Source: Fimicolochytrium jonesii (lineage: Eukaryota). Taken from it: 64,000 bases of DNA. Positions 7,396 through 50,003 of the stretch are shown piece by piece. The notes under the pieces are model-generated. The model searched no databases, was not told where the DNA came from, and was given only the letters and a program-made list of their open reading frames with translations. Each line of letters starts with the position of its first letter. The stretch's first letter is position 1. Both the position numbers and the translations under genes were made by a program. The stretch is from the NCBI RefSeq assembly GCF_025526975.1, contig NW_026515669.1, positions 1,798,001 to 1,862,000 on the forward strand, given 5' to 3'.

Positions 7396-10300
7396 ATGAG
7401 TCGCCCATACGGCAGCCCAGCGGTGGCTACTTCCGGAGGAGGGGGCGGTAGTCTTAGAGGACAGCCACGATTGAGGGTTGCAAAGTCGCCAAACGAGGCC
7501 ATGGCGAGGACGAACTGTGTGTTTGTTAACCCGAGAGATATTGACCCGAATGCGAGATTTGTTCTGTTGGAGGATAATTACGCGTTCAACGTGAGGTAAA
7601 TGAGCGACAGCGAGCGATGGTGGTTGTCTGCGGCGGGCAAAGGGAGCGTGGGAGCGAGAGAGAGTTGCGACTGTGGACTGTGACGAGCGAAGCGAGACGC
7701 AGGGATGCTTGAAAGAGGCTAGCCATGGGTGAGTCTGGGAGACCGAGCGAACGCCGTCGCGAGCGAAGCGAGCCACATCTCGTCAAAGGCGCAAGGCGCC
7801 GCTAACCTTTCTGGTTGAAGATGGTTGATGAATCGTTGATGGTTGATGTTGAAGTGTTTGGATGGTCACTGATGGGTTGATGGTCAATGGTTGATGGTTG
7901 ATGGTTGATGAACTTTGATAGTTGACCGACCTACGTCGTCCCTTTATGAACAGAACCAGCGATGCCGTACCTCCCGGAGAGATCTTCACGACATTGTTCC
8001 ATCGGCGTTTCGGGTCTCTGTCGCTGAATCAGGAAGTCAGTGTGTGGCCCTTCGATCCGGCGCAGGAGAACCCAAACTGTTTCATGGGGACCATCGACCT
8101 TCAGGTGGGGATGACCTTCAATGCCCAGCATCCCAGAAGTGCATGCTAACGCGACGATACAGGTTGGCTTCTTGAAAAGAAACTTCGAAACAGCAGAGCT
8201 CTTCAACGTCCAAGAGATGGAACAGATCTTCCGCGCATCGTTCGACGGGCAGATCTTCGCAGTCGGCCAAACGGTCAACTTTGATTTCCACGGCACGGAT
8301 CTGTTGTGTGAAGTCGTCGGGATCACCCCAGTGGACTTTGAGCAAATCGCCGGCAGCGGGGCGGGACAGATGGGTGTGGCGAGCACAGCGAGCGGGACGC
8401 AACAGGGTGCAGGCGCTGCTGCAAGATTGTCCCGTGGGATCTTCCTCAACCAAACGATCATCCACTTTGTGAAAGCGAGCGACTCGGCGATCAAGTTGAA
8501 GGGAGAGAAGAAGTCAGTGGTGAAAGATCAGTCATTAACCCATCGGACAAAGATAGAAAGCTAAAAGTTGTTACGGCGCTAGGTCTGCTGCTCCAAACGC
8601 TCTGCTGCAGCCGAATTTCAGCTTTGAGGATTTGGGGATTGGAGGGCTTGACCATGAGTTTTCGCAAATCTTCCGGAGGGCTTTTGCGTCTAGGATTTTC
8701 CCGCCATCTATCGTCGAAAAGCTTGGGATTCAGCACGTCAAAGGTCAGTGTCATGACTGATGACATGCGATTTTGGGAGGCATCTGCGGAGTCAGCTGTC
8801 TGTAGTGTCTGCCCGCCAATGCTCCATCATGGTCTTTAAACTGGACTCCTTCGCGCCAGGTATCCTTTTATACGGACCACCGGGAACGGGTAAAACGCTC
8901 ATGGCGCGTCAAATCGGCAAAATGCTCAACGCCCGCGAACCACAAATCGTCAACGGACCTGAGATCCTCAACAAATACGTCGGACAGTCTGAGGAGAACG
9001 TCCGGAAGCTGTTCGCAGCTGCGGAACAGGAGGTCGGTCTCAATGCTTGGTCCTTAAGACAGGAATAGTCGGTCTATTCGAGCGAGGCTGAATTGCTTTT
9101 TTTTGCACATAGTATAAGGCGAAAGGGGAAGAGAGCGGATTGCATATCATTATTTTCGACGAGTTGGATGCTATTTGCAAACAGCGTGGGTCGAAGAACG
9201 ATGGAACAGGTGTTGGGGACTCTATTGTCAACCAGCTGCTGTCCAAAGTAAGCTCCCTCATTCGTCACGCATCCACGCTCGAACATGCAGCTTACTGCCA
9301 TCACTCAACCCCGCACCCATAGATGGACGGCGTAGAACAACTCAACAACATCCTCATCATCGGCATGACCAACCGCCTCGACATGATCGACGAAGCCCTC
9401 ATCCGCCCCGGCCGTCTCGAGATCCACATGGAGATCAACCTCCCCGACGAAAAAGGCCGCCTCCAGATCCTCAACGTCCACACGGCGCGCATGCGCACCC
9501 ACGAGCTCCTCGAGCACGACGTCAGCCTGCAGGAACTCGCGGAACGCACCAAGAATTTCTCGGGGGCCGAGATTGCCGGGTTGATCAAATCGGCTAGTTC
9601 GTTCTCGTTTAATAGGCATATTAAGATTGGGGCGTCGGTTGCTGTGGATCAGGATTATGAGAGTATGAAAGTGGCAAGGGAGGACTTCATGTTGGCGTTG
9701 GAGGAGGTGCATCCGTCGTTTGGGGTGGCGGAGATGGAGTTGCAGCAGTGTGTTGCGAATGGGGTTATCAAGTATGCGCCGCATATCGAGGTGAGTGGGG
9801 TGGTCGAAAGGCTGGTCGCGACGGGTGACGGCAATGCTGACTGCTATATCACCGCAGCGCATCTTATCGGATGGCCAACTCTTCATCGAACAAGTCAGGC
9901 GCAGTAAACGTACACCTCTCGTTTCCGTGCTCATTCACGGTATGAAAGCGGATTCGGACTGCAACCTCGAAATGTGGTTTCATGGATTCTAAAACCTTTT
10001 CATCTTCTCTCCTAGGCCCATCGGGCGCCGGCAAAACCGCCCTAGCAGCCACAATCGCCATGGCGAGCGACTTCCCCTTCATCAAGCTCATCTCCCCGGA
10101 AAGCATGGTCGGGTTCACGGAGCAGGCTAAGATGAACCATATCAGCAAGGTACGATTGTGCTTTCGCCCTTTACATACCCACAGCGCACGATTGCCTGAC
10201 GGATTATTTCTTTTGCAGATCTTCAACGACGCACATCGGTCAGAGTTCAGTTGTATCGTAATTGATAGCATTGAGCGCGTACTGGACTGGGTCGCGATTG

Positions 10301-10820
10301 GGCCTAGGTTTTCGAATACGGTTTTGCAGACGCTGATGGTACTGCTCAAGAAGCCGCCAATGAAGGTATGAAATCAATCACAGCACCCATAATCCTATTA
10401 TCCCTCATCCCCATCTCACCAACGCCTCATTTCTTTCACACATCACAGAACCACCGCCTCCTAATCCTCGCGACAACAAACCAACGCCACGTCCTCTCCC
10501 AAATGGACCTCACCGAAGCCTTCGCCGCCTCCCTCTACACCCCCCACATCTCCACCCTCCCCGCAATCGACACCGTCCTCCGCGAACTTGCCACTTTCAG
10601 CGACACCGACCGCCGGCGCGCGATCGACGCCCTGAGGAACGCGGATGTGGAAGCGAGGGGACTGGCGATCGGTGTGAAGAAGTTGTTGATGGTTACCGAG
10701 ATGGCGGCACAGGATAGGGAGGATCCGGTGGAGAAGTTTGTGAATTCGGTGTTGGATGAGGGGACGAGTGGGGGTGGTGGGGGGAGGGAGGGGGGCAGGG
10801 AAGCGATTTCGATTGCGTGA
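7396..10820 (+). CDS. SEC18: Vesicle-fusion AAA ATPase NSF/Sec18, multi-exon
   Basis: [67 protein letters not shown]2 motif [17 protein letters not shown]. Confidence 0.96.
7720..7807 (+). repeat. Intronic dispersed element, copy 1 (SEC18 intron 1, 7596-7953)
   Basis: GCGAGCGAAGCGAGC at 7759-7773 followed by cacatctcgtcaaaggcgcaa, similar to 48762-48800. Confidence 0.7.
7820..7911 (+). repeat. Degenerate (GATGGTT)n heptamer microsatellite
   Basis: atggttgatggttgatggttgatg and decayed copies in SEC18 intron 1. Confidence 0.8.
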
Positions 10821-48306: not shown

Positions 48307-50003
48307 ATGGCCTTCCACGACGGCCTCCACCCCTCCATCCTCATATCCCTCTGGTTCTTCTTCTCAACAACCCTCATATTCTCAAACAGATACATCCTCG
48401 TCGAACTCAACTTCCCCTTTCCTCTCCTCCTCACCACCTGGCATCTCTCTCTTGCCACTATCGCCACGAGGGTCTTGAGAAAGTACACGAATTTGTTGCC
48501 GGGAATCGACGAGATTGATAAGAAGCTCACTTGGGATAAATGGGCGAGGACTGTGCTGCCCATTGGCCTGCTGTTTAGTGGCAGTCTCGCTTGTGGGAAC
48601 TATGCTTGTGAGTACCGCGAGCGGAGCGCCAAACGAAGTGAGGCATTGGGTTGCTCTGGGAGCTCGGGCGGGAGCGAATGCCTTCCGCGAGCGCCTTGCG
48701 CCAAAGCCGCAATACCCCTAACCGCGGCTCTTAGCGAGCCTCAGCGAGCGTCAGATCATTTGCGAGCGAAGCGAGCACCACATTGCGTCAAGGGCACAAT
48801 ACTCCGTTCACCCAGCCAACCCAACCTCTTTGTCGCGAACGGAGCGAGCAGGGTGTCGTTCAACCAACCATCAACCATCCGTCGCTTCGCTTCGTTCATC
48901 GTCCACTTTCTCACACTCACACACATCCCTTCACCTCCCTTCACCTCCATTACACAGACGTCTACCTATCCGTCTCGTTCATCCAAATGCTGAAATCAGC
49001 CACTCCCGTGGCCGTACTGATGGTATCCTGGTTCTTTGGGACCGAGAAATTCGATCCAAAGATCTTTGTCAACGTCCTGTTCATCACATTCGGTATCGCT
49101 ATTGCTTCGGTAAGATCACAAGGCGCATCTCTCACTTGATCCTCGTCCCTCACTCACATTAACACCGACCCCATCACAGTTCGGAGAGATCACATTCGTA
49201 ATGACCGGCTTCATCCTCCAATCCATGGCCCTCCTTTTCGAATCGACGCGGCTGGTGCTCATCCAGAAACTGCTGAGCGGGCGGGATATCAAGATGGAGG
49301 CGCTGGTTGGACTGTACTACTTTGCCCCCGTCTGTGCGGGAATCAACATGTTCACGACGTACTTGCTGGAGTCGGATCGGATTACGATGGCCGCGGCGCA
49401 GAATGTTGGGTTGTCGGTTATTCTGTTCAATGGAGCTAGTGAGTTGATTCAAAGAACCAAATTCGTGGCTTCTCCCCAGAATCTTGTCTCCCTGACACCT
49501 TCCAACCCATCATTCAACCTCCTCGTCCAGCCTCATTCCTCCTAAACGTCTCGGCAGTCCTCGTCATCAAAAAGACATCCACCCTCGTCCTCGCCCTCTG
49601 CGGCCTCCTAAAAGATATCGGCATTGTCGTCCTCGCCACCCTCGTCTACAGCACCCCCATCGGCACCCTGCAGGGGTTCGGCTACTCGCTAGCCCTGCTC
49701 GGGCTGATCAGGTACAAGACCCGGACAGAGGCGTTTTGGAATCATCCGGTTAAGAGCACGTTGTTGGGGGTAAAGAGGGTTCTGGGGTGAGTTTCACGTT
49801 CCGCTGTTTCGCTATGGGTCCCTTTTTCTCTACTGACTTTTCTTCACGATTGACGCTCTCGTAGGTTATTGAGTAACAAAGGTGGCGAATTCTCTTCATC
49901 ACAAAAGGGCGGGTACAAACCAGCCAACGTCATGGCTTCCCGTGACGACGATAAGGAGTACGCGCTGCCGACAATGGCGTCGCATTCGCCGGTTCGGCCG
50001 TAG
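48307..50003 (+). CDS. TPT/SLC35-family nucleotide-sugar transporter, multi-exon
   Basis: FPFPLLLTTWH, LPIGLLFSGSLACGNYA, YLSVSFIQMLKSATPVAV, LYYFAPVCA and LCGLLKD. Confidence 0.9.
48640..48865 (+). repeat. Intronic dispersed element, copy 3 (transporter intron 1, 48608-48957)
   Basis: Hairpin TTGCGCC-AAA-GCCGCAA at 48696-48712, GCGAGCGAAGCGAGC at 48762-48776, and a second hairpin variant ttgcgtcaagggcacaa. Confidence 0.8.

Follow-up and report, generated by a model that had tools for sequence, protein, structure and literature searches.

A degenerate, probably MITE-like repeat in three long first introns of the chytrid Fimicolochytrium jonesii

Repeats inserted inside ordinary fungal introns have been described (PMC3609843, excerpt) and, as at the locus reported here, such repeats give unrelated genes intron sequence in common. 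The reported fungal cases are near-identical introns from ascomycetes, whereas the present repeat has about 79% core identity, is rearranged, and was found in a chytrid and in first introns only. Introners and the introner-like elements (ILEs) of Dothideomycetes are, like the introns considered here, long, mutually similar spliceosomal introns of unrelated genes in the same orientation. In contrast to what excerpts describe for them (PMC3609843; PMC12130899), the present introns have seemingly ancestral positions, are not spanned to both splice sites by the repeat and have no stable conserved fold. GCGNAGC mini-hairpins have known roles in phage and plasmid origins and in promoters (PMC13037366, excerpt). 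The present introns resemble them in a recurring word holding GCGAAGC and in the enrichment of GNA mini-hairpins, counted over both strands (9 in 1065 nt, compared with about 3.4 in shuffles); the word turns up often in non-coding DNA of unrelated viruses and so assigns the repeat to no family.

MITEs and non-autonomous DNA transposons with terminal inverted repeats are short, non-coding, dispersed and located near genes. The present repeat, with non-coding copies of about 190-300 nt, shares these traits and has hinted inverted ends; unlike in MITEs, the candidate terminal repeats are weak and fall below the core in conservation, and no target-site duplication was found. Henaff et al. in 2014 reportedly described plant MITEs amplifying E2F binding sites; the present repeat is likewise small, lies near genes and carries E2F-consensus matches, in two of its three copies.

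Host introns and features

The repeat was located in three housekeeping genes of the soil chytrid F. jonesii within a 64 kb window (the whole stretch of DNA that was analysed). 'First intron' denotes the first coding intron throughout; 5'-UTR introns are possible. The features are as follows.

7596-7953, forward strand: first coding intron of SEC18/NSF, 358 nt, phase 2 (exact spliced mapping of its own protein, P0130)
7600-7660, forward strand: SEC18, degenerate second copy of a left-end-like block (P 0.002 against 7672-7750; shuffle test, 21 pairs tried)
7673-7712, forward strand: SEC18, candidate left terminal inverted repeat (reverse-complement match to the 3' end of the TPT copy)
7740-7810, forward strand: SEC18, truncated repeat core with GCGA-rich word and degenerate palindrome (E 3.6e-5)
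7835-7910, forward strand: SEC18, array of 10 tandem copies of a 7-bp unit (consensus GTTGATG) occupying the 3' part of the intron
12621-12977, forward strand: first coding intron of SRP101 (SRP receptor alpha), 357 nt, phase 0 (exact mapping of P0121)
12712-12899, forward strand: SRP101, well-aligned part of the repeat (weaker similarity to about 12645-12946)
12760-12776, forward strand: SRP101, palindrome forming a perfect 7-bp stem around a 3-nt loop (E2F-type consensus site inside, 12762-12769)
48608-48957, forward strand: first coding intron of a TPT/nucleotide-sugar transporter family gene, 350 nt, phase 1
48645-48864, forward strand: TPT, well-aligned part of the repeat (weaker similarity to about 48612-48906)
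48866-48906, forward strand: TPT, 3' block and candidate right terminal inverted repeat (similar, in reverse complement, to the left blocks of SEC18)

The intron coordinates and lengths given in the initial annotation (358, 357 and 350 nt) were confirmed by the mapping of P0130 and P0121 and, for TPT, by the removal of 48608-48957, which restores a reading matching the Geranomyces homologue P0250. Pfam SRP-alpha_N continues across the SRP101 junction (1-45 and 46-106). The oversize of the three introns was also confirmed: ordinary introns in the window are 58-116 nt long (n = 18, median 74 nt), a statistic that leaves out long introns from the ad hoc gene finder, which fused genes, and the remaining introns of SEC18, SRP101 and IMPDH span the same range (n = 14, 58-116 nt). 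Of nine further first introns that were called, eight measure 72-114 nt. The first intron of the adjacent gene ARF1 (176 nt) is without a repeat copy, and the three host introns are twice its length. The suggested connection of the hosts to the secretory pathway is weak; it concerns three genes and a category picked post hoc, and the ARF1 intron is copy-free.

Homology and anatomy of the copies

The shared blocks proposed in the initial annotation were recovered for 12750-12841 and 48687-48776 (79.6% identity, E 3e-13) and for 7759-7807 and 48762-48812 (78% identity, E 0.002); 12863-12893 and 48830-48860 are 84% identical, though with E 0.28 taken alone. The SRP101-TPT homology was longer than originally noted, extending over about 240-280 nt (48641-48906 against SRP101-intron positions 90-326, E 8e-18). 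Its core has 113 of 143 aligned positions identical (79%). Gaps amount to about 60 nt in each copy. The local scores for SRP101/TPT (88) and SEC18/TPT (46) were each attained by none of 300 shuffles, and that for SEC18/SRP101 by one of 300. The SEC18 copy is truncated and rearranged, its E value of 3.6e-5 being obtained under a model made from the SRP101 and TPT copies. Significant alignment spans positions 90-326 of 357 in the SRP101 intron, 39-318 of 350 in TPT and 144-212 of 358 in SEC18. Conservation is higher in the core than at the ends: 74 of 89 core positions are identical, compared with 44 of 71 in the left flank (Fisher p 0.004); conservation of the right flank was not significantly below that of the core. 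The core has 16 shared CpG and shows no CpG decay (transitions in 2 of 44 CpG columns and 15 of 99 others, p 0.09). No fourth copy was found in the whole 64 kb window, giving three in total, and none lies in its intergenic DNA (about 16 kb, a rough hand estimate) or later introns. Given that the copies are intronic, the chance of all three falling in intron 1 is 0.005.

All copies had been described as sense. This holds only in part because one block is antisense between copies, the core being on the same strand in all three. When both strands of the whole window are searched with the reverse complement of 48866-48906, the top three matches other than the block itself fall inside the SEC18 intron, at 7673-7712, 7600-7626 and 7893-7906. 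The first of these and the TPT 3' block are reciprocal best non-self matches in the window; 7600-7626 additionally matches the reverse complement of 48872-48899. Within its own intron the reverse complement of 48866-48906 has a weak match at 48632-48644 (13 nt, 85% complementary). The inverted-repeat signal inside single copies is weak (P 0.04-0.06) and may stem from recurring short words. Around the candidate ends no target-site duplication reaching 5 nt was found, and 3-4-nt matches were at chance level; no sharp repeat termini were found and the candidate ends are not fixed. The palindrome module is duplicated internally in the TPT copy (48696-48718 and 48783-48805), and the GTTGATG array unit occurs in reverse at about 48866-48880 of the TPT intron. 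A nested or recursive intron was considered and rejected, as the internal GTGAGT donor at 7729 is present in SEC18 only and absent from the other copies.

The two-module pattern gave no matches in viral contigs, the 29-nt consensus pattern none in metagenome contigs or prokaryote genomes, and two further repeat patterns none outside the window; plasmid and phage records gave no match to the repeat beyond 35 nt at E 0.3. The 18-nt palindrome pattern was found at 16 viral loci with no homology past the pattern, and the 15-nt word GCGAGCGAAGCGAGC at 130 loci or more (best E 3.5e-4, on short stretches). The empty outside searches do not imply that the repeat is species-specific because the collections contain few chytrid genomes. 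In the literature searched the word GCGAGCGAAGCGAGC was unmentioned, no non-autonomous intronic transposon of Spizellomyces was found and no title or abstract describes this repeat.

Origin of the repeat

We regard the sequence as a degenerate, non-autonomous, MITE-like DNA repeat that was inserted in introns probably already existing and is spliced out with them (probability about 0.6). Of the readings offered in the initial annotation, a non-autonomous mobile element fits best, mobility itself being something we infer, while its structured RNA was not supported; its coordinates, intron sizes and shared blocks stood, and its common hairpin, all-sense copies and secretory link were not confirmed. 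The copies are homologous, are without recognisable coding and are built of recurring GCGA-rich and palindromic words. Homology in unrelated genes (E 8e-18, with a third copy at E 3.6e-5) and the inverted match between the SEC18 copy (left part) and the TPT copy (right end) argue for this reading, and insertions of this kind in ordinary fungal introns have a precedent (PMC3609843, excerpt).

An element of about 300 bp would have been copied by a transposase encoded elsewhere and inserted into short introns probably already present, the weak left/right match being a putative worn terminal inverted repeat. The SRP101 and TPT introns minus about 300 nt would leave about 55 nt, near the ordinary size here, and the element is predicted to be spliced out with its intron as a passenger. 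Later changes comprise internal duplication in TPT and truncation with microsatellite expansion in SEC18; the SRP101/TPT divergence looks like decay, with substitutions, gaps and stem breaks without compensation. The first-intron bias could reflect a preference for inserting where chromatin is open around transcription starts, the loss of copies that hit exons or promoters and, perhaps, decay that is slower in the 5' part of genes.

Against the MITE-like reading it counts that no target-site duplication of at least 5 nt, no sharp ends and no transposase were found. In MITEs the ends are usually more conserved than the core, and these copies reverse that pattern. All copies lie in intron 1 on the same strand, and the near-equal intron lengths, despite many indels, are not accounted for by a fixed-size insert alone. 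The absent CpG decay contrasts with the marking of transposons by 5mC in Spizellomyces (PMC12695648, excerpt).

The age of the introns was assessed from protein alignments. In four of the ten best TPT relatives, including one from Olpidium (a gene model), the alignment breaks off at the same phase-1 site, and three of those four show the residues expected from an unspliced GTAAG donor; for SRP-alpha one unspliced call departs at the same phase-0 site (one informative of nine matches). These departures of relatives' unspliced gene calls suggest that the repeat is younger than the intron positions in TPT and SRP101, and unrelated genes would share intron sequence because the repeat sits within these older introns. 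For SEC18 there is only a hint of an old position, P0166 beginning at the junction. Among metagenomes, 275 pattern matches yielded no confirmed orthologous TPT locus.

That each whole intron was instead made by an old introner-like element is the least probable account. The three introns are similar in length, their copies have the same sense, the TPT similarity sets in no more than about 10 nt from the donor and spans most of the intron, and fungal ILEs exceed ordinary introns in length and degenerate with age (PMC3609843, excerpt). However, the TPT and SRP101 positions are seemingly common to distant relatives on protein-end evidence, the similarity fails to reach both splice sites in all copies, and a published screen, which targets recent, similar families, gives no introner families for F. 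jonesii and the relatives shown (PMC12130899). A structured intronic non-coding RNA, snoRNA-like or of a new class, carried by several first introns is also highly improbable. The same-sense core and the fold z-score of the whole TPT intron (-1.98) would suit it, as would a 3' hairpin (48801-48808/48837-48844) with an SRP101 counterpart, in which one of eight pairs is compensated and two are broken (by hand). The z-scores of the other introns (-0.80 and -0.61) and of the shared blocks (-1.15 to +0.97) are not unusual. The supposed shared hairpin has a 7-bp stem that is perfect in one of four copies (SRP101), with 4 of 28 cells unpaired and none of the seven pairs changed on both sides; RNAalifold did not predict this stem on the sense strand. 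The sense consensus fold equalled its column-shuffled null (SCI 0.44 for both; P 0.35 for energy, 0.54 for SCI and 0.39 for covarying pairs), a comparison of two long copies with little power, and the antisense strand scored slightly higher. Rfam gave no gathering-level matches in the window (best E 0.13-6), the copies have no C/D or H/ACA boxes in common, and signs of a SINE derived from tRNA, 5S or 7SL RNA (Pol III A/B box by pattern, tRNA, Rfam match, A-rich tail) were not found.

A cis-regulatory or chromatin module acting at the DNA level, possibly exapted from a transposon and kept in first introns, is unlikely, yet has several observations on its side. Its CG-rich words would bind E2F/SBF-type factors and the intron length may be held at about two nucleosome repeats. 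All three copies are in intron 1, the core is conserved above the left flank, CpG-containing words are kept, and the intron lengths of 350-358 nt are twice that of the element-free ARF1 intron. The three introns, 1065 nt together, hold three of the window's 17 matches to GCGSSAAA (post hoc binomial 0.003). On the other side, the window as a whole shows no enrichment of the motif (17 matches are reached by 8 of 100 shuffles), the SEC18 copy is without a match, so that only two of the three introns carry sites, and SEC18, SRP101 and TPT are not typical cell-cycle genes. The word GCGAGCGAAGCGAGC is generic, being carried by at least 130 viral loci without extended homology, and most of the other first introns called (eight of nine) are 72-114 nt. 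GCGSSAAA is the E2F consensus and chytrids retain E2F and SBF (PMC4862756, excerpt); more than 1% 6mA in F. jonesii (PMC11258239, excerpt) was counted in favour, and elsewhere in eukaryotes 6mA marks linkers downstream of starts (PMC12695648, excerpt). The fuller proposal, a repeat family targeted to or kept in first introns, with E2F-type sites, that holds introns at about two nucleosome repeats and preserves 6mA/nucleosome phasing past the start site, is decidedly doubtful. Spread without a transposase, in which introns of co-expressed genes would acquire the sequence from one another through ectopic gene conversion or templated double-strand-break repair, seems slightly less credible still. 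It would suit the mosaic modules, inverted fragments, blurred ends and missing target-site duplication, but requires a donor and does not account for the choice of palindrome-rich, GNA-mini-hairpin-rich sequence for copying.

If the repeat is transposon debris, as the MITE-like reading holds, it adds an unremarkable member to the chytrid repeats, of which few are catalogued, and cautions that long introns alike in sequence need not be introners. Should the confinement to first introns and the convergent lengths hold across the genome, chromatin architecture would be shaping insertion survival and permitted intron length, and would do so in a fungus that combines high adenine methylation with both E2F and SBF regulators.

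Host genes and intron sizes

The IMPDH, SRP receptor and SEC18 proteins of the window were 100% identical to records of Fimicolochytrium jonesii, a spizellomycetalean chytrid. Exact spliced mapping of the species' own proteins gave ten introns in SEC18, five in SRP101 and one in IMPDH, and confirmed the coordinates initially annotated for the first introns of SEC18 and SRP101. The long introns and the remaining introns of the transporter gene were as follows.

7596-7953: SEC18 first intron, 358 nt (exact spliced protein mapping)
12621-12977: SRP101 first intron, 357 nt (exact spliced protein mapping)
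TPT-family gene: introns of 350, 70, 92 and 78 nt (best match to the Geranomyces homologue P0250)

The other 14 introns of SEC18, SRP101 and IMPDH measured 58-116 nt by exact spliced mapping. First introns of nine genes outside the SEC18/SRP101/TPT set, eight of them called by hand, were 72-114 nt long in 8/9 cases. The remaining one, in ARF1 (6226-6401, minus strand), is 176 nt long, roughly double the usual size and half the length of the three long introns; the both-strand model search of the 64 kb found no repeat copy in it. A proposed link to the secretory pathway appears weak, given three genes, a class defined post hoc and the neighbouring ARF1 without the element.

Extent and anatomy of the shared repeat

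The similarity among the three long introns is real. All three previously described blocks were recovered by self-BLAST, and shuffling equalled the observed similarity in 0/300 (SRP101/TPT), 0/300 (SEC18/TPT) and 1/300 (SEC18/SRP101) trials. The SRP101/TPT match was lengthened to about 240-280 nt (E 8e-18) using nhmmer, and a sequence-only model of these two copies identified the copy in SEC18 (E 3.6e-5), with no further copy better than E 0.2 on either strand of the 64 kb. Two recurring words each occur four times in the window, always within the three introns; since the patterns were derived from the copies themselves, the shuffle counts for these words overstate significance.

The core (12750-12895 against 48687-48862) is identical at 113 of 143 positions, with 17 transitions and 13 transversions. 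It is modular, combining a recurring GCGA-rich word with a 17-nt palindrome that is present twice in the TPT copy. In the SEC18 intron the core is truncated, the left-end-like block is present a second time and there is a 7-bp tandem array. This intron also contains an internal donor-like GTGAGT site at 7729 (6.4 bits, within the true-donor range) that is absent from the other copies. The initial annotation placed all copies in the sense orientation, which holds for the core; the three best non-self matches to the reverse complement of TPT 48866-48906 all fall in the SEC18 intron, which suggests either terminal inverted repeats of about 40 bp that have worn down, or inverted fragments in SEC18. 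The widest plausible ends, as judged from the alignments, would be about 12645-12946 (SRP101) and 48612-48906 (TPT). With these ends, the host intron would amount to about 55 nt in both genes, towards the short end of the ordinary range. No target-site duplication of at least 5 nt was found around these candidate ends.

Other features of the window

58744-63900, minus strand: adrenodoxin-reductase (ARH1-like) coding region, apparently an in-frame insert midway through an insulinase/M16 peptidase gene
39406-39721: degenerate 63-69-bp tandem repeat (2.7 copies), directly after the DNA polymerase alpha gene
39799-40050: second repeated block (54 nt), likewise directly after that gene
57512-57570 and 57943-58001: 60-nt direct repeat (83% identical), in a long intergenic stretch upstream of an ABC transporter gene
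16673-16698, 20672-20691 and 59270-59295: long single-base runs (G or C), 20-26 nt each; the first and last appear to be intronic

The open frame 63599-61830 spans the M16 N-terminal half into the reductase start. Pfam Peptidase_M16_M is matched at positions 3-121 before and 124-280 after the reductase region, the middle part matching adrenodoxin reductase at E 6e-48; a candidate donor near 60437 and acceptor near 60307 would return the reading to M16. A genuine fusion by domain insertion, one gene nested in another, or a mis-assembly could each account for the arrangement; an Atlas search with the junction gave no usable match. The repeats after the polymerase gene may encode a minus-strand coiled-coil repeat; the frame 38655-39536 had no Pfam match.

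Origin and possible role of the element

The element probably did not create its host introns, judging from where related proteins end. Of the 150 TPT relatives compared, 110 matched the junction pattern, including some off-target matches, and 40 did not. Four of the ten best matches (one Olpidium bornovanus model and three Logan or JGI/ENA calls) depart from the alignment exactly at the first-intron junction, three with the residues expected from a phase-1 GTAAG donor; most of the distant matches run across it, either because they are spliced or because they have no intron there. In SRP101, the relative P0128 stops following P0129, which is continuous, at the phase-0 position of the first intron, and for SEC18 there was only a hint. 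Searches for orthologous DNA gave no confirmed locus. The element failed the introner tests; in Gozashti et al. (2025; PMC12130899), F. jonesii is credited with 0 introner families, as are the listed rows of Powellomyces, Geranomyces and Spizellomyces, by a method that filters out secondary insertions into existing introns, this very case.

A structured intronic RNA, as initially proposed, is unsupported. The named stem (TTGCGCC-AAA-GGCGCAA) is perfect in 1/4 copies, with both-side changes in 0/7 pairs. Single-block folds were no better than shuffles, whole-intron z scores were -0.80, -0.61 and -1.98, and the sense-strand two-sequence consensus (SCI 0.44) equalled the null. Rfam gave no match, the element failed the tests for known RNAs, and no snoRNA or Pol III boxes were common to the copies. 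The antisense consensus scored a little higher than the sense one, with an energy P of 0.03 and an SCI P of 0.09. One 3' hairpin, read by hand, has a single compensated pair alongside two broken pairs. Two copies give little power, hence a grading of unsupported rather than refuted.

Retention as a regulatory module is unlikely, and is kept alive by placement, lengths, core conservation and E2F-consensus matches. SEC18, SRP101 and the TPT gene have 10, 5 and 4 introns, and in each the copy sits in the first (chance 0.005); no copy was found in roughly 16 kb (hand-estimated) of intergenic DNA. In other eukaryotes the first intron is commonly the longest and carries the most regulatory marks (PMC7411622), which makes an insertion or survival bias towards first introns plausible. 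The three introns agree in length within 8 nt, although aligning the SRP101 and TPT copies takes gaps totalling about 61 and 68 nt and SEC18 differs in composition. F. jonesii carries >1% 6mA (PMC11258239), a modification that in other eukaryotes marks the linkers between nucleosomes downstream of start sites (PMC12695648); a nucleosome-multiple rule for intron length would be a guess from four introns. The core is better conserved than the left flank (p 0.004), with no CpG decay seen, and three predicted E2F-consensus sites are spread over two copies, SEC18 having none.

The mobile-element interpretation is favoured in the form of decayed non-autonomous DNA-element copies sitting in old introns (probability about 0.6). 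They resemble MITEs, membership being unproven, and their behaviour matches that of repeats that have landed within regular fungal introns (PMC3609843). GCGAAGC mini-hairpin words (PMC13037366) also occur here, enriched on both strands of the introns (9 against about 3.4 in shuffles); being common in unrelated viral DNA, they name no family. No published description was found in the literature searched, and the element is a real repeat family member in a chytrid, apparently undescribed.
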